A stretch of DNA of 64,000 bases, from NCBI GenBank assembly GCA_963845755.1, contig CAWJTV010000011.1:96001-160000 (forward strand), written 5' to 3'. Positions 11,456-52,789 of the stretch are shown piece by piece (positions within the stretch are counted from its first letter, which is position 1; the number at the start of each line of letters is the position of its first letter). The notes below the pieces were generated by a model that saw only the letters and a program-made list of their open reading frames with translations, was not told the DNA's origin and did not search any database. A program made the position numbers and the translations under genes. This DNA comes from an uncultured Planctomycetota bacterium. GTDB lineage: Bacteria; Planctomycetota; Planctomycetia; Isosphaerales; Isosphaeraceae.

Positions 11456-11520
11456 CCTTGGTAACCCGATGGGCTCCTCGGTGAGTTCTGGCGGACGTCA
11501 TCTATTAGCAACTGCTTGGA

Positions 11521-11929
11521 TCAGGTCGCTCCGTGTGTAACGATCCCGTCTCCATCGACACGCATCCACTCGGCATAATAAGGCGATCTGATCTCGATTT
11601 CCAAATACTCAGGGTCCTCCCAAGTGAAGAGGATGGTCCCGGCTGGCGTCGGTGCGACGGTTGTCGGTGCTGAATGATCGATCCGCCCGAGATAGTTAGC
11701 CAAGTCGATCGCGCTATCGACTAGTTCGATGGAGGGTGCTGCCGCTCCCAAGCCGTCCCAGTTGTCCCCGAGTCGCCTGAGTGGTTCAAGAGCCCGGACG
11801 ACCTTTCTCCACGTGTCGCGCGAGTGGTGAACAAACCCCACGAGAGCAATCGTGGTCTTCAGATAGGGATCCATCGGCCGGGTATAGCCCGACAACGCCT
11901 GGCCCGGGCTGTCCAAAGTGGCAATCATG
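11521..11929 (-). CDS. Hypothetical protein (NWDGLGAAAP motif), possible antitoxin
   Basis: LGDNWDGLGAAAP...VAPTPAGTILFTWE...LEIEI; directly follows the TIGR04255-like gene. Confidence 0.5.
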
Positions 11930-12921: not shown

Positions 12922-15395
12922 TCAGAAGTGGGATGCGTGGACCCGGCGGAAGTTGAGTTGGGGCGTTTGGCTGTCGGCCATGGCATCGCGGATGCCGCCG
13001 CGAAGTGCGTCGATCAGGTCTTCCTCCGGATGGCCGTCGGCCGGGTAGTCGACCCACTGGCCGCCACGGCGCTGCTTGGAGTAGTTCCGGAAAGCGTCCT
13101 TCAGCCGCGTGCACCGCGGGTGAATCGTCAGGTTGCCGGTCTCCAGGAGCAGCTCGATCGCGTCGAGGCCATCCAGGACCAGGTGTCGGGGCCAGCGATC
13201 GAGGATGCGCGTGCCGAAGACGCGTTCGTATTCGCCATAGGCGGCCGGGCCCAGCGAGGACCGCGCTGTCGCCGCGGGGTCGACACGGACGGAGTCGATC
13301 CGGCCACGGCACGGCAGCTCATCGGCCAGCGCCTTGATGGCACGGGCATTCTTCTCGCTTACCCGATCAATCGCGTGGTAATCGCCGAAGACCGTCACGC
13401 GCGACCAGCCGGCCGCCGGATTCGGTCGGACCTGGAAGAAGACCGCTGCGGTGTGGCGCGACGTACCGGCGTCGATGGCGCAGCGGACCGGGTATCCGGG
13501 GTGATACTCGGCCTCGGTGGAGACGTGCCGGGCAGGGTCGAAGTTGGCGAACCAGACGCCTTCGGTCGTCTCCAGGAACTCGGCGTAGATCTCCTGGCGG
13601 CCCAGCCGGGTATGCTCGTACAGGCTGACGATCTGATCGACGAACTCGCGGGGCAAGTGGACCTGGTTGTCGTAAGTGGTTTCGGTCGTCCGGACGGTGG
13701 TCGGCTCGCCCAGGATTCGCTTCAGGACGGCGACGCGGCGCGGCGTGGTCGTGATGAGGGCCTGGGGATTGGCCCCGTCCCGCAGGGCCAGCATCGCCAG
13801 GTCCCAGGTCATCTGGGCGCGCTTCCAGCAGTTATGGACCAGGATCCCGTTGGCATAGAACTCGTGGGCATCTTCGACGTGAAGGTCGTAGACGGGTGCC
13901 CTATCGGGAAGTTTCTCGATCCTTACGACGGAGGGCGGACTGCTGGCTCCAATGAATTGCCTGACAGCGTCGCGAGCACGTGATCCGCAGGTGTAAATTG
14001 GCTGACGAGAATGGTTGTTGACAGATGGGACACAACTTTGCCGGCCTGCGCTTGATGCGCCGGCGCACGCGATAGGCATCCCCACATTCTCGTGAGCACG
14101 TGACCGTTCGAGGATCGCGGCTCGGAATGGAGTGCCACAGATCGCACACGGCTTCTCGGTTCGCCTCCGTTGAGAGACCTTTGGCTTCTTCGGCCTCGGT
14201 TTAACTCTGCCGGTCCGGTAATAGTACCGTTGCGCACACCGGATGTTGCAGAACTTCGCTCGCATCCCAGTGCTCTGGTAGACAGTTCCGCACCCGACAC
14301 AGACGACGTCGCGCGGCTCCCTTTCGCCCCACTGCTTCCATGAATTCTCCTGAAACTGCTCCTTGGACCATGCAGCCCAACCCTTGGGCCTATGTCGTTT
14401 GAGATGTACCGAGCGAGGAATCGCTTCGAGGTTTTCCGGCGCCCAGTTCGTCTTGTCCTCATCCTTATGGTGGACGTCGTATCCTCTTGGGATTTCTCCG
14501 CAGTGAGCGCGGTAAACGGCGCGATGCAGCATCCGCCCGTTTCGGGACACATAGTACCCGCCGTTGAGATACCAACGGATCCCTCCCCAAGACACGACGC
14601 GAGGTGACGATTGTCCCATGCATTGATTCTATCGCCATGCTGCAAAAGATCAATCCGAATCCACCCCTTTTCATCGATGAATACAAGATGGTTGGCGGTG
14701 CCTTCGAGCGTTCGTCCGTCGGAGAACGTGACCCGGTAGATTTCGGCGGAAGGATTGGACTGCCAGGAATCGAGAACGCGGCGGGGGCCGACGCGGGTCC
14801 ACACGTGCTCGCCGGCTCGCACCGATTCGATCGGCCTCAAGCCTTCGATCGTCTGGACGAGGGTCCCCGCGACCAGGCACGCCAGCTCGTCGGCCCAGAG
14901 GGTGTCGAGGTTCAACCCGCGGGCGCGCTCGGGCTCCTCGCCGCTGAGACAGACGGCACGGGCGCCGTTGGGCCAGGTGACGCGGCGTTTGGACGGCTCG
15001 AACCGAGGCCGGCACCACGGGGACGCGACCGCGAGCAACCCGGAGGGGCCCTCGACCATCACATCGCGGATATCGGCGTTGGTCGGAGCGATCAGGCCGC
15101 CGAGCTTCATGATGCCGGACTCGACCCGGGACTGGATCCAGCAGGCCCCTCCGCGCGTCTTTCCGGCACCTCTCCCGGCGATGTATCCCCAGACGCGCCA
15201 GTCACTTGCGGGCGGACGCTGGGCGACCCGCGCCCGGGGATGAATACGGCACGCGCCGGCAGGCAGCCCGCACGGGCAGGATTCGGCGTACCAATCCCAA
15301 ACCGAGCGGTCGGCCACCAGGGGTGCGAGCGTGCCGAGGCGGGCCTCAGCTCGCGCAATCCGCGCTGCCAGTCCGATCACCGATCTGCTCCTCAA
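12922..15395 (-). CDS. terL: Phage terminase large subunit interrupted by an intein (one apparent 1-nt frameshift near 14120)
   Basis: Walker A AGRGAGKT, GEEPERARG, Walker B LWADELA, LITTTP, TTYDN, RLGRQEIYAEF, nuclease AIDAG and EEDLIDALR. Confidence 0.9.
13831..14879 (-). mobile_element. Intein in terL (inserted right after Walker B), about 350 aa
   Basis: Begins CLVAGTLV..., block B LEGTANHLV, ends VYDLHVEDAHEFYANGILVHN followed by Cys+1 (CWKRA). Confidence 0.92.
13901..14619 (-). CDS. HNH homing endonuclease with CxxC zinc-finger repeats, nested out of frame inside the intein
   Basis: LHRAVY...GEIPRGYDVHHKDEDKTNWAPENLEAI...H; CVGC..FCNIRC, CAIC..TCSREC, CPIC..TCSRRC. Confidence 0.85.
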
Positions 15396-15740
15396 TCTGG
15401 GACATGCGGCGCTCGAGCCCCGCGTAATTCGAGATGGCCATCATGTCGGAAAGGATGGCCCGCAGCGCTGTCAACTTGACGGACTCGGACTCGGCCTCCC
15501 GGGCGAGCACGATGATCCCATCGGCCGCGCGGGTGACGTTCTTGGACATCCGGCCGATGGCCCGGTCGACGGCACGGCGGCGATACGCCTTCACGGCGTC
15601 CTGGACCCTGGGCTCCTTGGCCCATCGGTAGGCCGTCCGCCTGGCGACCTGGTGCTCCCGCGCCACGAGGCGACGGACGTTCCCTGGGCGATTGCCAGGG
15701 CGAGGTTGGACTTCTTGCCTGGGGGATGCGGTTCGGTCAT
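15346..15740 (-). CDS. Terminase small subunit-like HTH protein (frameshifted near 15665)
   Basis: LALAIAQGTSVASW/AREHQVARRTAYRW HTH, helical C-terminus; immediately upstream of and overlapping terL. Confidence 0.65.
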
Positions 15741-23580: not shown

Positions 23581-26500
23581 TCAGGGGGCCTCCTCTTCTT
23601 CCGCCGCATTGTCACCACCCTTGTCTTCCTCCTCGCCGCCGTTGCCCTCACCGAAGGCCTCGGGATCGTAGTGCGCGCTTTCGGGATTGGCCGGGTAGAG
23701 GGAGGGCGAGCGGGGTTCCTGGCGGCCGATCACCAGCGCGAAGATCGAGGGGAGGACCAGCAAGGTGGCGAACGTGGACATCACGAGTCCCCCGATCACG
23801 GCGCGGCCGAGCGGGGCCTCCATCTGGCTGCCGCGCTCCAGGGCCAGCGCCATGGGCACCATGCCGACGGTCATCGCGCAGGCCGTCATCAGGATCGGCC
23901 GTAGCCGTTCGCTGGCACCCATGATGGCGGCCTCGGTCGAGCGCTTGCCCGCCTTCCAGTGTTCGTCCATGAACGTGACCATCATCACCGAGTTGGAGAC
24001 CGAGACGCCCAGGCACATGATCGAACCCATGAACGACTCGATGTTAACCGTGGTCTTGCTGAAGTAGAGGATGGTCACGATGCCGGCGAGCACGCCCGGC
24101 ACGGCCCCGATGGAGATCAGGGCCAGGCGCGGGGATTGGAAATAGGCCGTCAACAGGACGAGGATGACGAAGACAGAGACCGCCAATCCGATCCCCAGGG
24201 CCTCGAACATCTTGCTCATCGGCGGCAGCGATCCCATCTCCTCCAGGCGGACGCCGCGGGGCAGCTCCCCGACCTCGTCGCACGCCTGGCGGACCTGCTT
24301 GGCGGCCCGACCCAGGTCCTCACCCTCGACGTTGGCGATCACGGTCAGGTACGCGCTGCGACATGTCGCGGTCGTACTCGCCGGGCCGCACGCTCTCATG
24401 AACCTGGCCGTCCTTCAACACGTCGCGGACCATCAGGGGAACATAGGGGTTGACCGACTCCAGCGGCAACTCTTCGAGATCCGACGGCTTCTCCATCCGC
24501 AAGGCCGGCACCTGGATCTGCACCAGGTAGTCGAAGCCGGTCTTCTCGTCGATCCAGTAATTGAGATTGGTGAAACGGGTCGAGGCGGTCGCCATGACGA
24601 GTGCACGCTCGACGTGCTTGAGGGTGACGCCGACCAGGCCCGCCAGCTCGCGGTCGATGGTGACCTCGACCGTGGGGTAGTCGAGCGTTTGCTCGAAGCC
24701 GACATCGCGGAGGAAGGGATTGCGCCTCAGCGCGGCGGCCACCTTCTCGGCATGCGCACGGATGGCATCATAATCGGTGCCGACGAGGCGAACCGCGATC
24801 GGCTTCGAGGAGCCGAAGCTCATGACCTGACTCACGATGTCGCCCGGCTCGAAACCGAAGGTGCTCTTGTCCGCCTGTTTCTGCGCCTCGTCCTTGGACA
24901 ATCCGCCCGTCTCCAGCCGGTTCGCCAGCCAGGGGCCCACCCGCTCGGGGAGGACCTTCCGGAGCCGCTCGCGGAACTCGTCGAGCTTGATCTTGCTGTC
25001 CTCCTTCAACTTGACGCGCAGCCAGCCGTCGTCGGGCCCGCGCATGAACAGCACCATGTTGTCGATGCCGAAGTTCGGGGCGACCTGGCCGACGAAGCCC
25101 ATCGTGATCGAGACGTTGTCGGTCCCCGCCTCGTTCTCGACCTCCTGGAGGCATTTGATCCCCATCTCGCGGGTCAGCTCGTAGCTCGACCCCGCAGGCG
25201 GTCGGAACCGCAGCACGAATTCCCCCTGATCGATCTGCGGGAACAATTCGGTGCCGACCTCGAGACCCAGCACCCCCAGGATGAGGCCGCACGCGCCGAG
25301 ATAGATCATGACCACCCAGAAGCGATGCGCGACGAACGCTTGCACGGCCGTGCGATAAGCCCCGCTGACCCGGTCGAACAGTCCGGGCTTCTTCTCGCCC
25401 TGTTCCTTCTTGTGCTTGAGCAGGTAGACGCTCATGATCGGCACGAATGTGCTGGAGAGCAGGTACGAAAAGACCATGGCGAAGCCGACCGCCAGGGTCA
25501 GCGGCATGAACAACGACCGCAGCGGGTCTTCCATGATGAACGCCGGGATGAACACCGACAGGATGCAGAGCAAGGCCAGCAGCCGCGGCACGGCCGTCGC
25601 GTTGCTGGCGTTGAGTACCGCCGTGGCGATGTTCGAGGTTTCCTCCATCTGCACGTGGGTGTTCTCGATCGTCACGGTCGCCTCATCGACCAGGATGCCG
25701 ATGGCCAAAGCCATGCCGCCCAGCGACATGATGTTGATCGTGTTCTGCGTCACCCAGAGTCCGAACAGGGACCCCATCAGGGCGAGCGGGATGTTGCAGA
25801 CGACGACCATCACGCTCCGCAGGTCGCGGAGGAACAGGAGGATCATCAGCCCGGTCAGGCCCGCGCCGATCGCGCCCTCGGTGGCCACGCTCTCGACCGC
25901 ATGCACCACCGTGGGCGACTCGTCGAACTCGAAGGTGATCTTCACGTCGGGCGGGACGGCGGCGCGGAAGGTCTCCAGCGACTTGTTGACGTCGGCGACG
26001 ACGGTGAGCGTCGAGCCGGTGTCCTTCTTGATGATCGGCAGGTGGATCGCCTTCTGGCCGTTGACGAGGGCATAGCCGTAGGTGATGTCGGTGTCGTCCT
26101 GGATGGTCGCCACGTCGCGGAGGTAGACGTTCTGGCCCAGCCGGAGCGGGATGTCGCCCAGGCGCTGGATGTCGACCACCGTGGCGTTGTTGTGGACGAT
26201 CGGCATCGCGTCCTTGACGTAGATGTTCCCCGACGGGATGACGACGTTCCCGTTCTTGAGGGCCTCGACGACGTGCTGGGGGTTGAGGTTGTATTCGAGG
26301 AGCTTTCGGGGATCGACATTGACGATGATCGACCGCATGTTCGGGCCGAATGGGGAGATGGCGACCGTGCCGGGGACGTTCTTCTGCACGAGTGGCCGGA
26401 TGATGTTCTGCGCCAGGTCGCCCATCGCCCCGATCGAAGTCTTGTCGCCCTCGCTGGTGAAGACGAGGTAGCCGATCGGGACGCTGCCGGCGTCCATGCG

Positions 26501-26974
26501 CATGATCATCGGCGGCAAGGACCCCGGGGGCATCCACGCCATGGCCCGGTCGGACATCGCCACGACCTGGGCCATGGCCTGGCCCATCTCGGTGTCGTGG
26601 AAGAAGCCGAGCTCGCACAAGCCGACCTGCTGGATGTTCCGCGATTTGATGTCCTGGATGCCGTCGACGTACTGAAAGTACAGCTCGAGCTCGTTGACGA
26701 TGAATCCCTCGATCTGGTCGGGACTCATGCCGATGAAATCGAAGAAGACGTAGATCTTCGGGGTGTTCAGCGAGGGGAAGATGTCCACGCGCATCTTCCC
26801 GTAGGCCAGGATGCCCAGGCTGATCAGAGCCAAGACCAGCATCATGAGGGTGATGGGATGATCCATCGCCAGGACGGTGGGATTCGCGGATCCGGCTTTC
26901 TTCCTGGGTTCGGCGGCCACGAGTAGAACTCCTCGATGCGGCTGGCTCCAGTCGTTCGGCGAGGCGCCGCGCAC
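23581..26974 (-). CDS. RND efflux permease (AcrB/CusA family), frameshift near 24350
   Basis: VDIFPSLNTP, SLGGMALAIGILVDEATVTIEN, ERLRPILMT, PLGRAVIGGL. Confidence 0.9.
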
Positions 26975-39830: not shown

Positions 39831-41728
39831 TCATCCGCCGGCGCCCGCCATGGCCGAGGTCTGCTGGCGATGGGTCTCGGCATAACGGCCACCTCGCGCG
39901 ATCAGGTCGGCGTGAATCCCCTGCTCGACAATCCTCCCGGCTTCGAGGACGACGATCCAATCGGTGCCGCGAACCGAGGCGACTTTGTGCGAAACGATCA
40001 CAAAAGTTCGCCCCGGAAGACTGCGATCGAGAGCCTGCTGGATGCGGGATTCGGTCTCGGAATCCAGGGCGCTGGTGCAGTCGTCCAGGAGCAGGACGGT
40101 TGGCTGGGCCACGACCGCGCGGGCCAAGGCAAGCCGTTGCCGCTGGCCGCCGGAGAGCGAATAGCCTCGCTCGCCGACAGGGGTATCCAGTCCAGCGGCC
40201 AGGGAGGCGACCGTGTCGGCGAAATCGGCGATCCGAAGCGCTTCCCACATGTGGGCGTCCGTCGCCTCGGGATTGGCGTAGAGCAGATTCGTCCGTATCG
40301 TCCCCTCGAAGAGGAGGGCTTGCTGGGGCACCAGCGCCACGGCCCGCCTGAGATCGGCCAGCTTGACCGCGCGAACGTCTCTGCCATCGAAGCAAACCGC
40401 ACCCCAGGGCCTCCCATGGACGTCGATCCCCTCGGGGACATCATAGAGTCGTGGGACCAAGGCCAGGAGAGTCGACTTGCCAGCACCACTGGCGCCCAGG
40501 ACGCCGAGACGCATCCCCGGCTCGATCCGCAGGTCGATATCGACCAGCACCTTGGCGCCCTCGGGCGAGTACGCGAACGAGACACCGCGATACTCGACCA
40601 TCCCGCGCGGGGCGACGATTGAGGCGGCGCCGGGGCGGTCGCGTACCGGCTCCGGCTCATCGAAGATCTCGTAGAGCCGCTCGACCGATACCTGGGTCGC
40701 CAGGGCGGTCGCCTGGAACTGCGTCAGCCGGACGATGGGCTGATAGAGCTGGCCCACCAGCGCATAGATCGCCAGCAACTCACCGACGGTCAGCAGGCCG
40801 CGGCCGACCAAGAGGATGCCGTAAGCGATGACGAACACGGTCCCGAGCCCACTGATCAGGGCCGCCAGCGCCCCCAGGGCCGCCGCGGTGCGCGTGTTGT
40901 CCCAGCTCAAGTCGCGGTGACGGTCAATCCGCTCGTCCAGCTCGTTGAGCTCGTCTTCCTCCTTGGCGTAACTCCGCACCACCCGTACGGCCGAAACGCG
41001 CTCGCTCAAGAGGGCATAGAGCGTGGCAACCTGCGCGCGGATCTCGTCGGAGAGCCGGCGCAAGGTCCCGAAGAAAGCCCTCTGGTTGAGGGCATACAGC
41101 GGGACGGCCACCAGGGCAACCAAAGCGAGACGCCACTGGAGCCAGGCGAGTAAGACCGCGATGGCCATCGACAGGATCAAATCGTTGAGCAACTGCAAGA
41201 TGCCGCTCCGGATGAACATCAGGATGCTGCCAACATCGCTGGTGACTCGGGCCATCAGCCTGCCGGTCTGCTGCGCGTCGAAATAGGCCATCGGGAGTCG
41301 CATCAGCTTGCGATGCAACGCCCCGCGCAACGCAACAACCACCTCCTGGCTAATCCGGCCCATCATGGCGGCGATCCGCCACGCCAGCGCCGCACGCGCC
41401 GCATGCAGGACGATCGTGGCGCCAAAGTCGTCGCGATGGCCCGGATGACCGAGGAGCGAGAAGGTCCAGCCGAAACTGCAGCCTGTCCGGAGAGGACCGT
41501 CGTCGGAGATTCGGAGGATCGCGATTGCCCGACAGCCTGGCAATAGGCCACCAGCCGATCGACCACCCAACCTTGCAAGAGGGGGATCGGCAACAACAAG
41601 ACAGACTGGACCAACAACCCCAGCAGGCCCAGCAAGATCAGTTCGCGATACGGACGAAGGAACTCGGCCTCGAATCGGCGTAGGACCGCGGGCGTCAGGA
41701 GTGGAACCCGATCCTTAGTCGAGGTCAT
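39831..41728 (-). CDS. ABC exporter, fused TM + ATPase (MsbA-like), frameshifted N-terminus
   Basis: GASGAGKST, LSGGQRQRLALARA, LLLDDCTSALD, VSH; ABC membrane domain. Confidence 0.9.
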
Positions 41729-42227
41729 TCGTCCAGAAGCTAGGGGTAAGGGAGCGTCACGATGCGTGACAGAAACCGGGCTCGACAACCAGTCTTCCCC
41801 GCGAGTCAAGCTTCGAGGCTACAATATCGCCCGGAACGGAGGATCCTGGATTCCAACGCGTCTGGCGATCGATCGAGTCGATGGTTAACTCGCGGACGGC
41901 GGCCGAGGATTGCTCAGTATCTGACGAAGGTCTCGCGGCAGGCAAGGGGAAGAGATCGCTCAACCGCGCAGTAAGCCTCTCCGAAAGCCAGGCATACCGG
42001 CTCAGAAAGACAGTGCCTTCGCTGAGACCCTGAGTCTCGCGGTCTGACACCCGCCCGAAAAACACGCACGATTGCATGAATTGAAAGCGTCCCGTCGATT
42101 GCTCTTTCGGGAATACACGTCGCTACCTGGTCAGACCGAGCGGAATTTCTGCGCATTCTTTGAGAAGAGTACTGGACTAAAGATCACTAAATGGAGCCTG
42201 AATAGCGGATTTTGGGGGTCATAAACA

Positions 42228-42345
42228 CCAGCCAAAAATTTTTTTGGAAAATTTACAACTCCTTTCTCATTTGTCATTTACGCAGAAAAATCCCGTAAAA
42301 TTCGGAATAGGTGCATTAACGAAATTCAAAACCTGCGGCATCCTG
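42228..42345 (+). promoter_or_regulatory. Conserved upstream element, copy 2 (morphogenesis cluster)
   Basis: ccagccaaaaatttttttggaaaattt ... taggtgcattaacgaaattcaaaacctgcggcatcctg, homologous to 15970-16087 on the minus strand. Confidence 0.75.
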
Positions 42346-42369
42346 AGAGTATGAGGTGCGAAGAGGAGA

Positions 42370-43058
42370 GTGAAAACAAGAGGGGCCGCAAGGTCTACGA
42401 CGATGGGGATTGAAAACACGCTGACTGGTGACGTCGGGGCATCAACAGACGAAATGGCCGATCTGGATCGAGGCTACGATCCCGTTTACGGGAATGATGC
42501 CCATTGTCGCCAGGGAAAAGGGAATCGCCGCGTGGAGACATTGCCCCGCACCGACCGGACACTGACGCTGGCGGTGGCGGCTAAAGAGTACATCTGGCTG
42601 TACGATCGTCGTCACGGAATGAGTATCAACGAGATTGCGGCTCGTGAAGGGCTGAACGTCGACCGGGTGAGGTATGGTCTGAAGCGGCGCGGGCCATCGA
42701 CAAGAAAACCTCGCGGGATGTGCAGTCCGGGCCCTGGAATCAGGATGCCGACATTGTTCATGCTCCCCGGTTGATTCCGCTGTTTCCGATCGGGCCCTAC
42801 ACGCCGCAGTTGACCTGCCCACACCGCGAGGCGATCGAGCAAGGCTCGGCTCTGTGTTGCATGGTCTGCCACAATTCCGGCATGGACGCACACCCTTCAC
42901 TGCGCCGCGACCCGCAAACAGAACCCGCACCCGAGCCCCAGGACGAGCCCGCCCCCGACCTCACCTTGCGATTCAAGACCGGCGAGTCGCTTGAGACTCG
43001 CAAACAACGGCGGCGGCGGATGTTTGCCCAGCAAGCCGCGACAGCCCCGAGCCGTTAG
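42370..43058 (+). CDS. HTH (sigma70 region-4-like) plus Cys/His-cluster protein, possible regulator (frameshift near 42690)
   Basis: GMSINEIAAREGLNVDRVRYGL HTH; CPH...CCMVCH..G.D.HP in the second frame. Confidence 0.55.
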
Positions 43059-43143
43059 AAATGAGCGCGGGGCCGATCACGTCCTTCCTGATTCCTCCAC
43101 GACTGGCCGCAAGCTCCTTGATCTTCCATCGAGGTATTCGACG

Positions 43144-43590
43144 ATGCCGTTCCAAGCGATTTGGGCCGCGATCCCGAGCCGGCGCACGCTCTTAACCATC
43201 GTGATTTCGAGCCTGCTGGGAGGGGGTCTGGCATTGGGTATCTCGACCTGGTTGGGCTCGCCCATCGGGCCGGTTCCAAGCCCCCGGGCACCGCATGATC
43301 CGCGATTCGTGCGCATCGGCCGGACCTATCTCACCGCTCTCGGCAAGACATACGCCTCGGCCTGGGACGAAGGCGCCAAGGGACTCGATAGCGGCCAGAA
43401 CCTCTCCACCGTGCTCAGTGCCGTCGCCAAGACATGGAGCACGAACCGGACCCAACTCTTTGACCAGATGGTCACTCCAGAATTCGGCAAACTGATCCCG
43501 GAGACGAAGAAAGACACCGACGTCACTCCTCAGGAACGTGCCGCCATGGCCGCGGCCTGGCGGGGATTCGCCCTGGGACTCCAGAAGTAA
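43144..43590 (+). CDS. Hypothetical single-TM protein
   Basis: TM helix then helical domain; GAGG RBS. Confidence 0.6.
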   Translation: MPFQAIWAAIPSRRTLLTIVISSLLGGGLALGISTWLGSPIGPVPSPRAPHDPRFVRIGRTYLTALGKTYASAWDEGAKGLDSGQNLSTVLSAVAKTWSTNRTQLFDQMVTPEFGKLIPETKKDTDVTPQERAAMAAAWRGFALGLQK

Positions 43591-43776
43591 TTAGCGGGGA
43601 GCCGATCGTCGGGGCGATCACGAACGCCAAGGCCTCGACGGCTCTCGACCGTGTCGAATCACCGACGACGAAGTCGTTGATTCGACGCAACCGGAATCCT
43701 AGCACGCCTCGGCCGAGAGGTCGTCGATCGCTCCGCGCAACCGAGTCTTGCCACCAACCAGTCTGCTGAACATCAC

Positions 43777-44693
43777 ATGACCGAGAGTCTAAAAATGCTT
43801 GATGATGCAGCATGTATGCCCCTTTGTGGTTGGAGGGGTAGTGACGCCATCCAACAGGCCTTCGCCTGCCAGTTCCCAACACTGGTGCAATCTGCTCCGC
43901 ACCTGATGGCAGCACCCGCGCCTACGGAGCCGGTCCTCCTTTTCAAGGCTTGGCGGGATGTTCTGGGCAAAGACCCGGCCTACCCCGCACAACAGATCGG
44001 CGACTGCGTCTCATTTGGCCATGGGCACGGGAACGACCTCCTCCAGTGCATCGAGATCGGCCTGGGTGAGCCGCTCGTATTCCAGGAGACCGATACCGAG
44101 TTTATTTACGGAACCTCTCGCGAGGTCGCCGGCATCCTCGGGCGTCAGGACGGCTCCTATGGCTCGGCGGCCGTGAAGGCGATGATGACGATCGGTATGG
44201 TCAGCCGGAAGATGTTGGGCTCGGACGGGACCTACTCCGGCCAGCGAGCCAAGGATTGGGGATGGCACGGAGCGCCGGCCGCCGTGAAGAGTGAGGCCGC
44301 GCCATTCAAACTGGGCAACGCCGCGCTGGTCTCGACGTGGGATGAACTGGTCGCGGCCGTCCAGAACGGATACCCCGTCACGATCTGCACGGGTCAAGGA
44401 TTTACCCTGACCCGCGATCTTGATGGATTCTGCAATGCCAGGGGAAGTTGGGGCCACTGCATGTTCATCGCGGGTGTCCGCTTCGACCGGCCGGGAGCCT
44501 GCATCGTCCAGAGTTGGGGGCCGGAGTGTCCCACGGGTCCGACCGCGCTGGGCCAGCCCAGCTTCTCGTTCTGGGCCGATCGGCCGGTCATCGAGCGCAT
44601 CCTGGGACAGGGCGATTCCTGGCGCTATCGAAGTCGCCCGCATTCGAGAAGCGAGACCTGCCTCCCGCATGGCGCTACCATGACGCCGCTTGA
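43777..44693 (+). CDS. Papain-like (C1-type) cysteine peptidase, frameshift near 44620
   Basis: QQIGDCVSFG (oxyanion Q, catalytic C), WGHCM (His), IVQSWG. Confidence 0.75.
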
Positions 44694-44749
44694 AGCGCCG
44701 CGAGTGGCTCAAGCCTAAATACAGATTTCAAAAATTGAGGATTTACAAT

Positions 44750-44989
44750 ATGTTTACGGCTTTTGTGGCTGCGATCGTGGCCTACCTGGCCAAGAACTGG
44801 CTGACGCTGACCTTGAAGTGTACGCCGTTCGTCGTGCTCCTCGTGTCGGGCTTGGTGCTCTACTTCACCAGTTCGACCGCCACTCGGATCGCGCTGGCCT
44901 GTGCGACGGTATCGGAGTTCGTCGTCGCCGCCATGGCATTCGGAAAGCTGACGTCCATCACGTTGTCGCCATCATCCCCCAAATCCTGA
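44750..44989 (+). CDS. Small multi-TM protein (holin-like)
   Basis: 79 aa, almost wholly hydrophobic, next to the peptidase. Confidence 0.45.
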   Translation: MFTAFVAAIVAYLAKNWLTLTLKCTPFVVLLVSGLVLYFTSSTATRIALACATVSEFVVAAMAFGKLTSITLSPSSPKS

Positions 44990-45054
44990 TCTCGAGTCGC
45001 AGGCACATGGATCACACGGGATTCACCGGACCTTAGCCAGCCGAAACCACGATC

Positions 45055-45579
45055 ATGCACTTCTGCCACGACACCATCTGGAAGGGAGTCACGACGACGT
45101 TCGTGGGCATCGCCGCGACGATCTACGGACTCGCGGGCCGGATCATTCTCGCCGCCACGGCGGTCAAGCCTCTCTACGGGGCGGCGTCCGACGCGATGCC
45201 GATCACAATGTCGGACATCTCGACGCTCGTAGGGTTCATCACGACAATCGGGGGCGGCATCTGGACCTGGTTGTTGCTGCAAAAGGCGAAGGCGACCGAT
45301 GCTCGACGAGAGGAAGCTCGCAAGGACGCCGATGCGGCGCGGGATCGGCGGGTCGATGACCGGATGGCCGATATCCAGCTCATGGTTGCGGAAGGGCTGG
45401 CCAAGATCCAGCTCGAACACGTCAAAGTCCATGCGACGGTGCAGGAGCACACAGCCGCGATCCAGGCGATGACGCATGGAGCCGCGATGACCGAAGTTCC
45501 GGCCGCGAACGTGCGGAAGAGAAGCGGCGGTGTTGCTGGGAATGCGCAAGATTCTCCGAACGAACACCCAGTCCGCTGA
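45055..45579 (+). CDS. Membrane protein with C-terminal coiled coil
   Basis: Two hydrophobic segments then a charged helix (ARREEARKDADAARDRR). Confidence 0.55.
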   Translation: MHFCHDTIWKGVTTTFVGIAATIYGLAGRIILAATAVKPLYGAASDAMPITMSDISTLVGFITTIGGGIWTWLLLQKAKATDARREEARKDADAARDRRVDDRMADIQLMVAEGLAKIQLEHVKVHATVQEHTAAIQAMTHGAAMTEVPAANVRKRSGGVAGNAQDSPNEHPVR

Positions 45580-45887
45580 GGCTGCCAGCCGATCAAGCCG
45601 AGACCACGCCTCACGGAATCGCGAACAGCACGATGCCGCATGTGATCCACCCGGCCATTGCCGCCAGGTCCTGAATCCTTTACTGCGAACAGCCTGGAGA
45701 TCTGGAGATCGGGCATCCGGTCTCGTCTCCGGGAAGGACAACCGGCCCCGTCCACGCTCGACACCGATCAACGCCCGGCGCAGCCTCTGAGGTTCGACAT
45801 CCGGTTCGCTGTCGCCGCCGTCGTGACCATCAACACTCCGTTCACTCCTTATCGCGGGTTCGCCCGTCCCTGGAGATTGTCCTGGCC

Positions 45888-46166
45888 ATGAAATTTACCG
45901 CCTTCTTGCTCGTCGTCGTCAACGGTTACAAGACGTATGCCTCGGCAATCCTCGCAGTCGTCGCGGGATTCGGGATGATCCTCACCAAGGACTACGAGGG
46001 GATCGTCTCTCAGCTCTTCCAGGCCCTCATCCTCATCTTCGGCGGCACGAGCGTCGTTGGCTTGAGGCATGCGGTGGCCAAGCTCGAGCGACCCAGCCAG
46101 GTGGGGTTGAGGCACGCCGTGGCCGAGAATTGTCCCAACAGCAACATCGCTGGGAATACCAATTGA
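45888..46166 (+). CDS. Small 2-TM holin-like protein
   Basis: VNGYKTY..ILAVVAG, second TM, GLRHAVAK tail. Confidence 0.55.
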   Translation: MKFTAFLLVVVNGYKTYASAILAVVAGFGMILTKDYEGIVSQLFQALILIFGGTSVVGLRHAVAKLERPSQVGLRHAVAENCPNSNIAGNTN

Positions 46167-46239
46167 CAGCTCGACTGTTCCCGAAGATACGAGGCCTGGA
46201 TCGACCGTACCGACAATTACGAATGAACATGATCGACGC

Positions 46240-46905
46240 TCGCTGATTCAGAGGACCAATGCGGCGAGGCGTCGCCGCTTCGAGCCGGATGACGCTTGCC
46301 CGCGACCCAACAACTCGGCTATCTGGCTTACAGCATTCGATGAGTCGTTCCATGTCACCACGACCACGGATTACAAGCCCGGACTTCCCGTGCATCTGGC
46401 CGTCAATCCGGGTGTCCACCGAGGTACCAGCCAGCACGGGCTTCGACCCCGACTCGCCGGCCGGGAACATGTTGCCACAGTTTTCGACAGCTCCTTCGCC
46501 TCAGGAGAGTCCGCCGAAGCCAAGGTCATGCGTATGCGATCCCGAGAACTCCGCAAGGTCGGAATGACCTACGTGATGGGCTCGATGAAGCCGGCGGAGC
46601 ATTGCCGACTCTGCAACGAGGTGAAAGTAGAGGGCTTCCTGATGCGACTTCGATACTCCTGGCTCGACCTTGTGACGTACCCGATCACCTTTGTGCTCCT
46701 GGCGCCCTGGCCTGGCATTTGGTCCGAATCCTACTCGATTTCCTGGGCTATCCGACCATGGATCGATGACCATCGATCGTGTGGTGCCCGCGGCGCACTC
46801 GACAATCCGGGGTTCGCTGACGACCCTCTTCACCAAGCATTATCACCCTATGCCATTCGACTGGCTCAAGAAATCGACGTCCCCCCAGCCGGGGCGCGGC
46901 ACTAG
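46240..46905 (+). pseudogene. Degenerate terminase large subunit remnant (nuclease-domain region only)
   Basis: IWLTAFDESFHVTTTTDYKPGLPVHLAVNPG aligns ungapped (13/31 identical) to VWFANFDPARHVSTEAEYHPGYPVRCAIDAG of the terL at 12.9-15.4 kb; sits just upstream of the portal. Confidence 0.65.
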
Positions 46906-48778
46906 CCGCGATGGGAGATTCGTGGTGAACACGGATTCGCCCTCGGCCGGGCCGAGGCCTGACGAGGATCTCGACGGCAAGCTCGTCGTCCAGCGCCGGC
47001 ACGTGGACTGGCTCGAGCACCAGATCCGCTGGCGGTGGCTCCTCGACAGCTTCGAGGGGGGAGACCGCTACCGCAACGCGGTCTACGGGCCGGACCGACG
47101 CGGCCTGCCGACGCGGAACCTGTTCCGGCACAAGCGCGAATACCCCGACCCGCAGATGTACCCCAACGTGTACCAGGGGTTCGCCGGGTTCCTGGGGAGC
47201 GTCAACGCGCAGACGCAAGATGTCGGATACGGGCCCTATCCCGGCATGATTGGAGCCGACCCGGCCGCGACGGCGCAGGACGATGACTACGAATACCGGC
47301 GCAGCCGGACGCCCATTCCCGAATTCGTCGCCGAGGCCGTCGAGATCCACATGGCGAAGGTGTACGACCAGGAGGTCGTGCGGGACGGGCCCGACGACCT
47401 CAAGGGATGGTGGAGGGACGTGGACGGCCGCGGCACGCCGATCGACGACTGGATGCGGGAAACGCTCGCCCCACTCCTTCTGGTCCTCGGCTGCATCGAT
47501 GTCTGCCTCGACCATCCCCAGGCGCCACCGGGCGAGACGATCCGCACCCGGGCCGATGAATTGCGATTGGGTCTCGACCGATGCGTCGCCAGCTACATCC
47601 TCCCCGAGAACATGGTCTGGTGGCGAAACGATGCGGCAGGGCGATACCTCGAATGCCTGGTACGCGAATACACGAATCCCTCGGATCGCGTGGATTACGA
47701 TAAGAACGGCAACGCGATCGACCCCCAGGACCCGGGAAACGTCGGCGAAGCGTGGCGGCGGAACTATGTGAGATATCGCCTCTGGCGGCCCACCGAGTCC
47801 ATCCTCTTCTCCTACGATGGGGGCGAGATTATCGAGCGCGTGCCGCATCCGTTCGGCCGCGTGCCGATCGTACGGTTGGTGGACCTCCCGCGGCACCGGA
47901 CCCCACACATCGGCAAATCCCGGTATGAGGCGATCGCCGAGTACCAGCGCGAGTATTACAACCGGGACAGCGAGCTGATCCTTTCCGACACCTTGCAGGC
48001 CCACCCGTTCCTATCCGGGGCGGAAGATTTCTGCAAGAGCGACAACACCCTCTCGGTCGGCCCGGGCTATGTACTCCCGATGAAGAAGAATCCGGAGTCG
48101 GGCTCGTACCAGGGGTGGGAGTTCGTCAGTCCCCCTAAAGACCCGGCTGAGTCGCTACGGCGGAACAAGGAGGACATCGTCGAGATGAAGGATCGCCGGG
48201 CCTGCCTCATGAAGCCGGCTGGAGCTACAGGCTCTTCTACCATCAGCCAGTCCGGGATCTCCAAGCAGCTCGACGCCGTCGCGGGTCACAAGCTATTCGG
48301 CGCCATCGCGAAGTCGCTCGCAAAAGCCGAGCGGTTCCTCGCCGAGTACGCCGCCATGGTGCTCCGGAACGCCCCCATCGGGCGAGAGGAACGGGAGCAG
48401 ATCCGCGTGACTTACCCGGCACGGTTCGAGCTGTTCGCGGCCACAGAGCTGATCGACAACCTCACCAAGCTCCAGGTCACGCTGAAGTCGGCCGGCGAGG
48501 CCCCGAACACCGAGCGCGAGATCCTCCAGGCGATCGTCCGCCAGACGCTCCTTGGCCTGACCGACTCGGAGTACGAGCGGCTTGACGACGAGCTCGAACT
48601 CATGGTCAAGACCAAGTCGCGACTGAAGGAGCCGGTACAGGAGATGGCTGATGCCGGCGTCTCGTCCCAAGCCGAGGCGATGCAAGGACCCGGATCGGCC
48701 GAACAGGCCGCGGGCGAGGACCCCACCGGTCAGTCCGGCGGGACGTTGGTCGGCAACATGATCCCCAGTGTGATGTAA
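46850..48778 (+). CDS. Phage portal protein
   Basis: 642 aa; RWRWLLDSFEGG..Y, DVDGRGTPIDDWM, HPFGRVPIVRL, SGISKQLD; position upstream of scaffold and capsid. Confidence 0.75.
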   Translation: MPFDWLKKSTSPQPGRGTSRDGRFVVNTDSPSAGPRPDEDLDGKLVVQRRHVDWLEHQIRWRWLLDSFEGGDRYRNAVYGPDRRGLPTRNLFRHKREYPDPQMYPNVYQGFAGFLGSVNAQTQDVGYGPYPGMIGADPAATAQDDDYEYRRSRTPIPEFVAEAVEIHMAKVYDQEVVRDGPDDLKGWWRDVDGRGTPIDDWMRETLAPLLLVLGCIDVCLDHPQAPPGETIRTRADELRLGLDRCVASYILPENMVWWRNDAAGRYLECLVREYTNPSDRVDYDKNGNAIDPQDPGNVGEAWRRNYVRYRLWRPTESILFSYDGGEIIERVPHPFGRVPIVRLVDLPRHRTPHIGKSRYEAIAEYQREYYNRDSELILSDTLQAHPFLSGAEDFCKSDNTLSVGPGYVLPMKKNPESGSYQGWEFVSPPKDPAESLRRNKEDIVEMKDRRACLMKPAGATGSSTISQSGISKQLDAVAGHKLFGAIAKSLAKAERFLAEYAAMVLRNAPIGREEREQIRVTYPARFELFAATELIDNLTKLQVTLKSAGEAPNTEREILQAIVRQTLLGLTDSEYERLDDELELMVKTKSRLKEPVQEMADAGVSSQAEAMQGPGSAEQAAGEDPTGQSGGTLVGNMIPSVM

Positions 48779-48885
48779 GAACAAGGGGTGTCGAGAGTCG
48801 GGCTGTGCGCATTGCGAACGGAAATCGCCTACCCAGACTCTCCACCCCATCCTCTAGACCGTTTGACAAACGCCCAATATCTGAA

Positions 48886-49114
48886 ATGCCCACTCTCACC
48901 TCCAATCAGGCCCAATGGCTCACGTTGGCGTTTGTCGTGGCTGTCACCATCCTGGTGGTCGGCTATGACCTCCTGGCCATCCACACCTATGGTGTTGAGG
49001 CATCGATTTCTCGGGTACTGCGGCGTCTCTTCACCCGGTACCCGACGCTATTCGCCGCGATGGTGTTCTGGATGGGCGTTCTGGTGGGGCATATCTGGCT
49101 GTCGAACGGAGTAA
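48886..49114 (+). CDS. Small 2-TM membrane protein
   Basis: WLTLAFVVAVTILVVGYD...AAMVFWMGVLVGHIW; 3' end uncertain (frameshift). Confidence 0.55.
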
Positions 49115-49563: not shown

Positions 49564-49785
49564 ATGCCTGAGACATCGGCGTCCATCAGCGACTCGGCCG
49601 TCCTTCCGGACTCGGCGACCGTCGCTGTCATTCTCGATGCTGGGGCGGCAAGATCACTGTTGGCGAGCCTGGTGAGCGGCGGCTCTCCTCGCCCTGAGAT
49701 AGCAAAGACCGTCTCACTCGCCCTGGTGGAAGCGTTAAATGTGGCAGAGAGCGGGGAAAGAGCCGATGACACCTGTATCTTCTGA
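49564..49785 (+). CDS. Small hypothetical protein
   Basis: Strong AGGAGG RBS, 73 aa. Confidence 0.45.
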   Translation: MPETSASISDSAVLPDSATVAVILDAGAARSLLASLVSGGSPRPEIAKTVSLALVEALNVAESGERADDTCIF

Positions 49786-49867
49786 GCATCGGCACTCGCG
49801 ACCTCTCGTTGGAACTGTCGGGGATTTCGCGCCATCTGGTTGTAGCTGGTTTGGGACTGAAACATCC

Positions 49868-50629
49868 ATGCGTATCGAAGCAGTTATGGTCTGCATCGGG
49901 TACGGCGACTTCCTCGCTGTTACCGCGAGCGAGAACCAGCATCTCCTTGACGACCTGGTCGTCGTTACGTCACCGGACGATGATGAGACCCGCGAGGTGT
50001 GCCGCCGGTACTCTCTTCGGCACGTCTTGAGCGAGGACCATCGTCGCGGAGGGCCGTTCAACAAGGCCCGGCTGATCCAGCGAGGATTCGATCAGATCGG
50101 CGCGAGGGACTGGGTCTTGCACCTCGATGCCGACATCGTGTTGCCGCGCCAGTTCCGCACTCTGCTGGAAATGGCGCACCCCGACGAGCGGGCGATCTAC
50201 GGAGCCGACCGATGCAACTTGGTCGGCTTCGAAGCCTGGCAACGACTCAAACGAGACAAAGGTTCCTGGGACAATTACTCTTACGAGTCCTACCTCCGGT
50301 TCAACCAGGAGGCCTCGCCCGGATCCCGGTGGTGCTCGAAATTGCACGGTTATGTGCCCATCGGGTTCTTCCAACTCTTCCACGGCTCGGCGATCGTCCA
50401 GCACGGTTACCACATCCGCTCCTATCCGTATCATCACGGCGACGCGGCGCGGACCGACGTCCAATTCGCATTACAGTGGGACCGGCGGTGTCGCCGGCTC
50501 TTACCCGAGGTAATCGTGCTCCATCTGGAGAGCGAGCCGTCACCCCTCGGAGCGAACTGGCGGGGCCGGACGACGGCCCGCTTCGGTCCGCGCGCGGGGA
50601 CGCCTCCACTCGTCAGCAGCGTGAGCTGA
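49868..50629 (+). CDS. GT-A fold glycosyltransferase
   Basis: VMVCIGYGDFL, VVVTSPDD, FNKARLI, WVLHLDADIVLP (DxD), GFFQLF, D..FALQW. Confidence 0.75.
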   Translation: MRIEAVMVCIGYGDFLAVTASENQHLLDDLVVVTSPDDDETREVCRRYSLRHVLSEDHRRGGPFNKARLIQRGFDQIGARDWVLHLDADIVLPRQFRTLLEMAHPDERAIYGADRCNLVGFEAWQRLKRDKGSWDNYSYESYLRFNQEASPGSRWCSKLHGYVPIGFFQLFHGSAIVQHGYHIRSYPYHHGDAARTDVQFALQWDRRCRRLLPEVIVLHLESEPSPLGANWRGRTTARFGPRAGTPPLVSSVS

Positions 50630-50702: not shown

Positions 50703-51452
50703 ATGACCGAAGCGACCCTCTCGACGCCGGTAAACCCGGCAACCCCCGTCCAGGCCACGGCGCCAATGGCGGCCCCGACGGTTTCGTCGGCGACCGCAAC
50801 GACCCAACAGACCGTGACGATCCCGCTCGAGCAGATCCAGGCCTTCACGAGCATGCAAGCCAGGCTGGCACAGCTCGAGATCGAACAGCGGAGCCGCGAT
50901 CAAGCCGCGCAGCAGGAGCAAGCACGGGTTATGGCCGAGAAGGGCCAGGTCGAGAACGCCTTGCGGATGCTCCGCGATCAGTCGGAACAACAAGTGCAAG
51001 CCGAACGGGCGAGGCTCGTGCAGGTCGAGGACCGCGCCAAGCGATATGCCCTGGACGGTGAGTTGTCCCGCGCCCTGGCCGCGTGCAACCTGGTCCCCGG
51101 CGGTGCGGAGCAACTGACTCAACTCTGGCGGAACCAGTTCACCGTCGAAGCTCAGGGGGATAGTTTCACGGTGCGTACGCCGACGTTCCAGTCGGTCGGC
51201 GAGTTCGTCTCTCAGCAGCTTGCCCGTACCGAGTATTCCCATTTCCTCCGGGCCCAGAACCCAGGCGGGGGTACCGGCGGAGTCCAGCCGTCGGCACAGA
51301 CACCACCGAGCACGCCCGCCAACCCGGCCCAGATGCCACAACCGAAGAACATGGGCGAGGCCGTCATCCTTCACATGCAGGGCATGCAAAAAGCCCAGGG
51401 TGACCCGAGGGCCAACATGACCCTGCCGATGGGACTCAAGGCCGCGCGGTAA
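50703..51452 (+). CDS. Capsid scaffolding protein (putative)
   Basis: Coiled-coil core, HFLRAQNPGGGTGG, Pro-rich tail, directly upstream of the capsid gene. Confidence 0.65.
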   Translation: MTEATLSTPVNPATPVQATAPMAAPTVSSATATTQQTVTIPLEQIQAFTSMQARLAQLEIEQRSRDQAAQQEQARVMAEKGQVENALRMLRDQSEQQVQAERARLVQVEDRAKRYALDGELSRALAACNLVPGGAEQLTQLWRNQFTVEAQGDSFTVRTPTFQSVGEFVSQQLARTEYSHFLRAQNPGGGTGGVQPSAQTPPSTPANPAQMPQPKNMGEAVILHMQGMQKAQGDPRANMTLPMGLKAAR

Positions 51453-51568
51453 TTCCGTCCTAAATCGTTTTCCACTGTCGTTTGATGCCCAAGTGACGGC
51501 CTTCGAGGCCATGCCGGCCGGGTCTAGTGCGACCCGAGAACCGCGGTTGCACTCAGGGACTCCAATCC

Positions 51569-52789
51569 ATGGCCGACTTTTTGCAAGGGTTCCTCGGAAC
51601 TCAGCAAGCTGGTGTCGAGGCACGAAATGATGTTACCGTTGCGATCAGGAATTGGTTTGCTAACCGCAACCCGCTCGTGACCCGCTTGCCGTATGTCCCG
51701 GTCGAGCGTGTCGACTTCCAGATGTACACGCACAAGTACCGGGCGCGGAGCACCACGCTGAATGCCGCGATCTCCAGCAGCTCTCAGACCAGCCTGACGC
51801 TGGCCGACGCCACATTCCTGATGAACCACGACGTCCTGGAGCTGGTCAACCCCAGCGGCAACGTCGAGCGCGTCCAGGTCAGCGGCGATCCGACCAGCCC
51901 GACCACGGTCAACGTGACCCGCGGTCTCTATACCGAGGTCTTGGGGGCGGTCACGCTCCCGAGCGGGTCCAACAACTACGTGACCGGCCTCACCACGTTC
52001 ACGACCGGAAATACCGTCAACCTGATCGGCAACAGCCGGACCGGCGCGGAGGTTCAGCAGACCGGCCTGACCACGATCGGCGTGGCCCGCACGCAGTATT
52101 GCCAGACGTTCCAGTTCCCCGTGCAAATCGGTGGATCGGCCCAGACGGCGCGGGCGCAGGTGATGCCCGGCGGCATCCAGACGCCGTTCGACTTCAACAT
52201 GACCGTCCAGCTTCAGAACATGGTGGACGACATCGAGAACTCCGTCTACTACGGCGTTGCCCAGGCGCCCAGCGACAGCGCCGGCGTCACGGCCAAGATG
52301 AACGGATTGCGGTCGATCTTCGTGACCAACAATATCTCGACCTGGACCAACACGACGCCGGTCAACGCCGCGGCCTATGGCTCGACCGACCTGATCCGCG
52401 ACACGCTCCAGGTGGCCCGGTCCGGCGGCGGCGAGCCGGACCTGCTCGTTGTCTCGACCAATTTCATGAGCGGGTTCGCGACCTGGGGGCAGGCGATCCA
52501 GCGCGTCCCGGCCGGCGAGACCGTCTTCGGCACGCCCATCAACGTCCTGGAGGCGCCGTTCTTGCACGGCGTCACGATCGTCGAAGCCCCGCTGTTGCGG
52601 CCCTACACGGCGATCGCGCTGACCAGCTCCGAGGTCTACATCCGCAACAAGCGGAACCCGTTCTGGCAGCTCCGCGGCAGCCGCGGCGATATGGTCGAGG
52701 GAGACTGGATCGCCGAGCTGGCGATCGAGGTCGTCAACGAGTCTCATCACGCCTGGGTTGAGGGCATCACCGCCTTCAGTGCGAACTGA
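51569..52789 (+). CDS. Major capsid protein (DUF5309/SU10-like, HK97 fold)
   Basis: RTQYCQTFQFPVQIGGSAQ, DIENSVYYG, KMNGLRSI, GDMVEGDWIAELAIEVVNESHHAWVEGI. Confidence 0.8.
   Translation: MADFLQGFLGTQQAGVEARNDVTVAIRNWFANRNPLVTRLPYVPVERVDFQMYTHKYRARSTTLNAAISSSSQTSLTLADATFLMNHDVLELVNPSGNVERVQVSGDPTSPTTVNVTRGLYTEVLGAVTLPSGSNNYVTGLTTFTTGNTVNLIGNSRTGAEVQQTGLTTIGVARTQYCQTFQFPVQIGGSAQTARAQVMPGGIQTPFDFNMTVQLQNMVDDIENSVYYGVAQAPSDSAGVTAKMNGLRSIFVTNNISTWTNTTPVNAAAYGSTDLIRDTLQVARSGGGEPDLLVVSTNFMSGFATWGQAIQRVPAGETVFGTPINVLEAPFLHGVTIVEAPLLRPYTAIALTSSEVYIRNKRNPFWQLRGSRGDMVEGDWIAELAIEVVNESHHAWVEGITAFSAN

Follow-up and report, generated by a model that had tools for sequence, protein, structure and literature searches.

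Positions 46227 to 46596 of the window, the 64,000-nucleotide stretch of DNA analyzed here, are very probably a nonfunctional relic of a large terminase gene (terL), a pseudogene fragment that originally belonged to a phage-derived head and tail cluster. The window covers positions 96001-160000 of contig C11 in a 14.3-Mb Isosphaeraceae genome of 49 contigs (G000). A sequence-only reading had proposed that the cluster's own terL degenerated in situ, and genome comparison strongly supports such decay: relatives carry a full-length terL at the same position, and the fragment has lost both of its ends and two Asp residues. Similarity to a TerL profile and a site directly upstream of the portal gene mark the fragment, as judged from its sequence, as terL by descent. 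Only about 120 of the roughly 510 codons of full-length orthologs at the same locus are left, and the fragment has neither the Walker A/B ATPase domain nor the complete RNase-H-like nuclease with its acidic residues that characterize a functional TerL.

The fragment (plus strand) covers the last stretch of the linker between ATPase and nuclease together with the beginning of the RNase-H-like nuclease domain, approximately residues 264-400 of the TerL of the relative G083. Using P0001, the translation of the frame 46111..46905, hhalign aligned residues 42-180 to a profile of 10 full-length TerLs from relatives (A3) with 99.4% probability (E 4e-21), and BLASTP aligned residues 45-180 to residues 277-414 of an orphan terL product encoded on contig C4 (50/138 identities, E 1e-21). 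The profile search that had been proposed from the sequence thus succeeded with the relatives' TerLs and failed with Pfam and PHROGs, neither of which matched the fragment; the public profiles are too distant for it, and the family-specific one was not. The similarity first noticed, to the start of the nuclease domain of a remote, intein-bearing terL, also held: BLASTP paired P0001 residues 69-147 with residues 353-435 at the nuclease domain start, in the C-part of that gene (12922..14619, minus strand; 26/83 identities, 4 gap positions, E 4e-8), and a six-frame tblastn search of 41500-49000 with both parts of the intein-bearing terL returned a single match at E <0.1, at 46318..46551 (E 6.9e-7). 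The ATPase part of that gene reached at best E 0.21 in the same interval, so no ATPase remnant is seen there, in agreement with the earlier observation that the domain is missing.

The match first noticed was, however, to the wrong family. The remnant is 44-50% identical at the amino acid level to the terLs that relatives carry in cis, versus 36% to the C4 terL and 31% to the intein-bearing terL. The relatives' TerL belongs to PHROG 2 (E 1.6e-12), and we refer to PHROG-2-like TerLs as type 1 and to Terminase_6N TerLs as type 2. The remnant's family is type 1, and the intein-bearing terL is type 2. Type 1 proteins, namely the C4 terL product and those of the relatives, have no match to Pfam Terminase_6N, which is matched by the intein-bearing terL and by a third terL on contig C28; the nuclease domains of the two types are about 40% identical. 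The remnant's family therefore differs from that of the intein-bearing terL, and an intact orphan terL of type 1 is also present in this genome, on C4. Among sequences of solved structures, the TerL profile found none at E <= 0.01, and fold comparison was used instead. An AlphaFold model of the relatives' TerL, with a mean pLDDT of only 56 and values of 65-84 in the nuclease part, matched T4 gp17 at E 1e-11 together with the D6E and Sf6 terminases, and matched isolated terminase nuclease domains at TM 0.57-0.65. Compared with the TerL of tailed phages (PHROG 2; T4 gp17, Sf6 gp2, and D6E TerL), the fragment corresponds by homology to the linker and the first half of the nuclease and shares the usual site directly upstream of the portal, and it differs as a relic would, by the absence of the ATPase domain and last nuclease third and by the replacement of two invariant Asp residues.

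The anatomy of the locus follows from a DNA alignment (A2) of window positions 45888-46900 with G071, G048, G083, and G092, and in addition from blastn. The ancestral order is tm92, a terS-like gene, terL, an ORF of about 40 aa, and portal. The gene tm92 (45888..46166, plus strand), the "holin-like" gene of the sequence-only reading, encodes a conserved small membrane protein of 92 aa and is recognized by a third-position GC of 0.85-0.88, tblastn, and A2; neither Pfam nor PHROGs matched it. It is the left neighbor of terS-like/terL in relatives, with tblastn matches upstream of terL or portal in 15 of 20 contexts, each of these being a relative with about 12 kb upstream of the portal. Comparison with G092 indicates that a deletion of about 1.26 kb in the G000 lineage (approximately 1256 bp missing) took the terS-like gene and roughly the first 280 codons of terL, and with them the whole ATPase domain. 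Its junction is placed at 46227..46228 by blastn against G092 and by A2: window 46101-46227 matches G092 9561-9688, the 3′ end of tm92 and the downstream spacer, and window 46227-46523 matches G092 10945-11239 (terL nucleotides 841-1135) at 70% identity. In alignments A1 and A2, all sequence before TerL residue 264-276, approximately, is gone from the window. A second deletion of about 0.45 kb (approximately 450 bp relative to G092) removed the C-terminal third of the nuclease domain together with the terL stop. It lies in or beside 46597..46641, a 45-base stretch that separates the last recognizable terL codons from the small ORF and whose origin is uncertain; the protein-level alignment is weak there, and blastn of 46523-46641 against G092 and G083 gave no DNA match.

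In the approximately 120 codons that remain, two invariant acidic residues are lost, and substitutions fell almost irrespective of codon position. All 10 full-length TerLs have Asp at four positions, D321, D384, D478, and D481. D321, the Asp of the A(I/V)D(P/A)G motif, is Asn in the remnant (codon AAT, 46405-46407), which agrees with the exchange of a putative catalytic Asp that had been read from the sequence; D384 is Lys (46588-46590), and D478 and D481 are deleted. D321 and D384 are putative catalytic metal ligands, in view of their invariance, their strand-end position in the model, and the metal-binding role of conserved acidic residues in TerL nucleases. The remnant also has a two-codon in-frame gap after "SAE." Promoter, terminator, and Rfam scans of 45.0-47.5 kb found nothing.

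To the right of the fragment lie two features unrelated to terminase. The portal gene (46850..48778, plus strand) is identified by phrog_145 (E 5e-33), A2, the G083 portal ORF, and a dN/dS of 0.06-0.10; its true start is ATG 46850 (MPFDWLKKST; MPLDWLKKST in relatives) and not 46691, and blastn shows 88% identity over the portal start at 46849-46900. Between fragment and portal is a small conserved ORF (MRLRYSWLDLVTYP...; 46642..46769, plus strand) that is 40-42 aa long in relatives and whose product is probably membrane embedded. This ORF is supported by blastn, A2, G083, and a soil-metagenome contig from run X3. It starts at ATG 46642 and shares 84.5% DNA identity with G092 (window 46641-46736) and 76% with G083, which has an intact 40-aa ORF (MRLRYSWMDLV...) between terL and portal at L041:11785..11907.

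This arrangement explains the long frame, which had drawn attention to the region and is indeed open from 46111 to 46905 (264 codons plus stop). The part at 46227-46596 stands as a terminase remnant; residues 178-264 of the frame do not, consisting of the small conserved ORF and the portal leader, with residues 178-199 being 95% identical to the terL-portal spacer ORF of G092. The 171-aa ORF at 46390..46905 is thus a mosaic of terL remnant, conserved 40- to 42-aa ORF, and read-through into the portal start; it is an accident, not a gene. The window is one base short after 46707 relative to all four aligned relatives, and as a result the frame stays open past the true portal start and ends at 46905. 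The X3 contig, 239 nt long and 98% identical, has a T inserted behind 46707 and five other differences; with this extra T, the small ORF is 42 aa long and ends in TGA at 46767-46769. Single-base indels in this assembly are untrustworthy, given that a host gene for AcrB in the window is likewise broken, into two overlapping ORFs. A 151-nt contig from run X1 is identical to 46245-46395, with no differences, which excludes an assembly artifact for that part of the remnant. The short metagenome contigs are patchy, leaving 46103-46203 and 46406-46607 bare (junction 1 and the two codons for Asn and Lys).

The open frame raises the question of whether the fragment is translated, for example with GTG 46390 as its start, to give an accessory protein without catalytic activity. 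The frame's openness and a third-position GC that is the highest of its three positions would fit such a product. However, the ORF joins three unrelated pieces, its 3′ third needs the 1-nt indel that is absent from the 98%-identical metagenome contig and the four aligned relatives, the piece retained differs in every relative whose terL has decayed, and the three codon positions have nearly equal shares of the substitutions. In simulations that mutated the G092 segment at 25-30% of sites, the frame was open in 9-13% of 20,000 trials, or about 1 in 10 under neutrality, and the window contains 75 stop-to-stop frames of at least 264 codons. The stop-free remnant frame (P = 0.09-0.13 under this simulation) is therefore uninformative, an outcome that is unremarkable but not negligible. 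A long ORF that is pieced together in this way and owes its length to a 1-nt indel makes the inactive accessory protein that the sequence-only reading had allowed for very improbable.

Substitution rates agree with a pseudogene fragment. Using our own Nei-Gojobori script on 88 gapless codons from SLIQ... onward, the remnant and G092 differ with dN 0.343, dS 0.639, and dN/dS 0.54 (23/26/34 differences at the three codon positions), against dN 0.093, dS 1.09, and dN/dS 0.085 (11/6/37 differences) for the intact pair G083 and G092, a comparison that bears out the decay. The near-even differences across codon positions and the high branch dN indicate relaxed constraint. A three-taxon estimate for the G000 branch gave a remnant dN of 0.31-0.33 and a dN/dS of 0.43-0.65, the latter with wide bootstrap limits of about 0.2-2.5 over the 88 codons, such that some residual constraint on the remnant is possible. 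A further point against the pseudogene reading is that the third-position GC of the remnant frame, 0.68-0.73, is still the top of the three positions. On the same branch, the portal gene has a dN of 0.029-0.030 and a dN/dS of 0.06-0.08; dN is 0.045-0.049 for capsid and about 0.05 for scaffold, with dN/dS of 0.10-0.16 for both, and 0.07-0.08 for the connector-like gene j53442. The dS values of these genes are similar to that of the remnant. The branch dN of 0.31-0.33 for the remnant versus 0.03-0.08 for the head genes implies that the latter remained constrained after the death of terL; over a large part of the G000 branch, the fragment has thus been drifting beside head genes under constraint. 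Among intact comparators, the nearest is G092, whose assembly is rich in errors (60% completeness, many split genes); G083 (99% completeness) leads to the same result. A dN/dS value for the major capsid protein against G080 was ignored as an alignment artifact.

Whether relatives carry a full terL between the holin-like gene and the portal had been named as a check on decay at this site, and a full type 1 terL is present there in 10 of the 20 contexts (G092, G083, G099, G080, G027, G082, G034, G052, G097, and G025). The gene order in these contexts is a42370, b42991, c43777, tm92, terL, and portal, followed farther on by scaffold and capsid. In G083, terL is preceded by a 130-aa ORF that is terS-like by position and has no family match. 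Two contexts have another form of the gene, a partial terL in G071 and a type 2 terL at the canonical site in G014, and terL is absent from eight (G045, G039, G048, G044, G029, G066, G032, and G035), in the first five of which tm92 still adjoins the portal. Counted separately over the 29 best portal loci, type 1 terL lies directly upstream in 16, either full length or running to the locus edge; the other 13 comprise 1 partial copy, 1 type-2-level match, and 11 with none, although in 2 of these 11 the sequence available upstream is shorter than 1.5 kb.

The decayed copies differ from one genome to the next. G071, which groups tightly with G092 (94% portal identity), has two different deletions and a frameshift, and its remaining terL codons are still conserved (dN/dS 0.18 versus G092). 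Two fragments of 123 and 48 nt are left in G048, the 3′ end is left in G029, and G045, G039, and G044 have no recognizable terL remnant at the site. We considered a DNA-level function for the stretch near VHLAVDPGVH, which is kept in G000, G071, and G048, and rejected it as unsupported since the breakpoints differ, G029 keeps another piece, and three genomes keep none.

The cluster around the fragment has traits of a GTA-like element. Its scaffold (50703..51452, plus strand; phrog_206, E 6e-10) and major capsid protein genes (51527..52789, plus strand; Pfam SU10_MCP, E 7e-34) are both intact and constrained, and conserved cluster genes extend to about 6.8 kb beyond the window end. The portal was found in 78 of 100 sampled relatives (79 of 101 including G000), representing 43 of 53 genera. 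The host flank to the left of the cluster (a LysM protein, a hydrolase, x38301, and an ABC transporter) also lies beside the cluster in G083, G048, G014, G080, G082, G099, and G039, from at least five genera, and identities of the portal, capsid, and ABC transporter rank the genomes alike. The kept flank and parallel ranks fit vertical inheritance at a fixed chromosomal site, as in a GTA-like element, and so does purifying selection on the structural genes, with dN/dS of 0.06-0.16 on the G000 branch and 0.07-0.14 in pairwise comparisons. Among the cluster ORFs scanned, Pfam and PHROGs turned up no integrase or replication family, with most cluster proteins matching nothing, and a tRNA scan of the window found none, so the cluster edge has no tRNA that could serve as an attachment site. 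Our literature search found no description of a GTA-like element in Planctomycetes or Isosphaeraceae, which is not proof of absence.

How a cluster without its own terL could persist is open to several interpretations. One is that no replacement is needed, the cluster being a slowly decaying cryptic prophage in which terL loss is the first visible step, or having been repurposed without DNA packaging. We regard this as possible, if doubtful. Decay or loss of terL arose independently in at least seven genomes, and orphan terLs are found among ordinary host genes, away from any structural genes, both in its favor. Against it, four structural genes have dN/dS values of 0.06-0.16 on the very branch where the remnant's dN is about 0.32; the cluster is intact in the terL-less short-read assemblies of G039 and G071, where portal, scaffold, and capsid each give one unbroken match; and the cluster is widely distributed across relatives and genera, at a site conserved in at least five of the latter. 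Alternatively, the cluster would still be useful and would obtain its packaging enzyme in trans, to which we give slightly less than an even chance; this rests on the purifying selection on the portal, scaffold, capsid, and connector-like genes along the same branch. Two candidates in this genome could supply the enzyme, a type 2 terS-terL pair 31 kb upstream and the orphan type 1 terL on contig C4.

The first candidate is the remote pair (12922-15666, minus strand) that the sequence-only reading had named as the replacement, a take-over that we find plausible but unproven. Its terL (12922..15395, minus strand) contains an intein with an HNH endonuclease (Pfam Terminase_6N, Hint, Intein_splicing, and HNH_3). 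The N-extein and the N-part of Hint run from 15395 to about 14640 in one frame, and HNH, the intein C-part, and the C-extein occupy 14619 to 12922 in another. The assembled gene is thus interrupted by a frameshift within the intein, near 14630-14650, which weighs against its function; this frameshift may be an assembly error, and the equally split AcrB gene makes indels of that kind likely here. The G083 ortholog is intact, inteinless, and 461 aa long. The accompanying terS (15346..15666, minus strand; phrog_2538, E 1.3e-9), which gives the pair both subunits, has a homolog with 63% identity upstream of the G083 type 2 terL. That this pair now packages the cluster's DNA would fit the constraint on the head genes after terL decay, and type 2 terLs do occur with related portals: G014 carries one between tm92 and portal, with 83% identity to the N-extein in the window and 73% to the G083 type 2 terL, and those of G052 (C1), G066 (C18), and G030 (C114) adjoin portals 43-57% identical to the window's. 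Moreover, the genomes with terL-less clusters G071, G048, G045, G039, G044, and G029 have only type 2 terLs elsewhere, at least two each. However, type 2 terLs are also present in genomes with an intact cis terL (G083, G080, G099, G082, and G092), so their presence does not discriminate, and the flanks of the pair are not conserved between G000 and G083. On balance, we consider packaging by this particular pair somewhat unlikely.

The second candidate, the orphan terL at the end of contig C4 (P0002), belongs to the family of the lost gene. The gene extends to the contig end and is full length to that point (517 aa, PHROG 2), is 57-61% identical to the relatives' cis terLs, and is conserved, with 93% amino acid identity and a dN/dS of 0.13 against G020, a member of the same genus, in a syntenic neighborhood of ordinary host genes. 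That it serves the cluster is nonetheless improbable. A search of G000 found no type 1 terS-like partner, the upstream side is unassembled in both G000 and G020 (a search for its continuation found nothing), and the other genomes with terL-less clusters have no such orphan. G020 itself has no portal or capsid match, which also counts against this role, although its assembly is 87% complete and may miss the region. We set aside the lack of the cluster in G020 as a sign of dispensability: the ortholog of the flanking ABC transporter is missing too, and the cluster region may simply be missing from the assembly.

Known systems offer partial parallels. Cryptic and defective prophages have truncated packaging genes, and the window shares with them in situ inactivation by deletions and a leftover that drifts neutrally; here, by contrast, the structural genes show no decay, being conserved throughout the family and under purifying selection. 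Phage satellites such as P4 and the SaPIs use the terminase of a helper, making packaging by a terminase encoded elsewhere mechanistically possible, whereas the window's cluster has yielded no helper phage, satellite genes, or cos/pac signals. A closer likeness is to the alphaproteobacterial GTAs, for which George et al. 2022 (PMC9254644) give a precedent in Holosporaceae for a terL located away from the main cluster. The window's cluster resembles them in being a vertically inherited, constrained head and tail cluster with stand-alone terLs elsewhere in the genome. It differs from them in its phylum (Planctomycetota, Isosphaeraceae), in its unrelated structural genes (SU10-type capsid), in that the cis terL is kept in most relatives and its remains are visible in the window, and in that the stand-ins are partly of a different TerL family and the cluster is known from its genes alone.

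Taken alone, the fragment is an ordinary pseudogene whose annotation as a gene is unwarranted. Its value lies in being a dated marker, telling us that the cluster's own packaging enzyme is long dead on the G000 lineage while portal, scaffold, and capsid are under purifying selection. The same loss arose independently in several related genera. We tentatively suggest, while thinking it unlikely in its full form, that terL of the Isosphaeraceae GTA-like cluster may have been lost repeatedly in large-genome genera because dispersed type 2 terS-terL modules serve it in trans. The type 2 gene of G014 would then be an in situ replacement, and positions 46227-46596 of the window would be a fossil of the hand-over. 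The domestication of this cluster in the Isosphaeraceae and the packaging of its DNA thereby become testable questions.

The type-2 large terminase gene (terL; Pfam Terminase_6N) at 12922-15395 on the reverse strand of the window carries an intein with an HNH_3 homing endonuclease, inserted after the Walker-B motif 'ADELA|C'. A frame change within the intein, near 14630-14650, leaves this terL split as assembled. An ortholog lacking the intein is present in the Isosphaeraceae relative G083 (locus L075:3384-4766), and the type-2 terL of another relative, G048 (L073), bears a different insertion, immediately after the P-loop 'GRGFGK'. A host gene is split as well: an AcrB-type efflux pump gene on the reverse strand (23581-26974) is read as two overlapping ORFs. 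One, 24320..26974, matches the N-terminal portion of the Pfam model, and the other, 23581..24399, matches model positions 801-1020. The split suggests that the assembly contains erroneous single-base indels here, or else that the gene is a true pseudogene.

Type-2 terL also occurs at the canonical terL site, between portal and tm92, a small membrane-protein gene. In the relative G014 (L043, reverse strand, oriented coordinates 10227-11729) it occupies this position in place of type 1 (PHROG 2) and shares 73% identity with the remote type-2 terL of G083, which looks like an in-situ swap of terminase family. Stand-alone copies of both types lie elsewhere in these genomes. Orphan type-1 genes on the reverse strand of contig C4 of this genome, G000 (L007:9875-11425), and of contig C21 of its congener G020 (L072:10019-11593) share 93% amino acid identity between the two species, with a dN/dS of 0.13; their neighbours are genes of ordinary metabolism, coding for a D-serine-dehydratase-like protein, an M20 peptidase, a hydrolase and RNase D, and both assemblies are interrupted just upstream of the orphan. 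A stand-alone type-2 terL (485 aa, Terminase_6N) on contig C28 of G000 (L008:8625-10079, forward strand) is flanked by genes for a sulfatase and a TrmE-like GTPase, with neither a homolog of terS, the small terminase subunit gene, nor a portal in its vicinity. Multiple such type-2 copies are found in large-genome Isosphaeraceae, with a maximum of eight matches in G044.

Three further genes lie within the phage-like head/tail cluster, all on the forward strand. The conserved genes of the cluster begin with a42370 (42370-42774), which is without any family match; its C-terminal half resembles a helix-turn-helix, as judged by eye, and it could be a putative regulator of the cluster. A conserved hydrophobic ORF of 40-42 aa (46642-46769; L041:11785-11907 in G083), with the consensus MRLRYSW.DLV.YP...LAW.LV, lies between terL and portal in G000, G071, G048, G083 and G092. 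Within the head module, flanked by portal and scaffold, is a family-2 glycosyltransferase-like gene (49739-50629) whose Pfam matches fall slightly under gathering scores; among the relatives' cluster contexts compared, it was found in G071, G083, G048, G014, G082, G045, G044 and G032 and was missing from G080, G039 and G027.

The cluster as a whole spans ~29 kb, from 42370 to the window end at 64000 and on for ~6.8 kb (L077:1-6837), and encodes portal, scaffold, SU10-type capsid and tail-fibre-like proteins. Among the papers listed in literature searches, none described such a gene transfer agent (GTA)-like cluster in Planctomycetes or Isosphaeraceae. Of 100 Isosphaeraceae relatives sampled, 78 carry its portal, representing 43 of 53 genera, and in at least five genera the cluster occupies a conserved chromosomal site. 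Purifying selection acts on its structural genes; the cluster looks domesticated and GTA-like.
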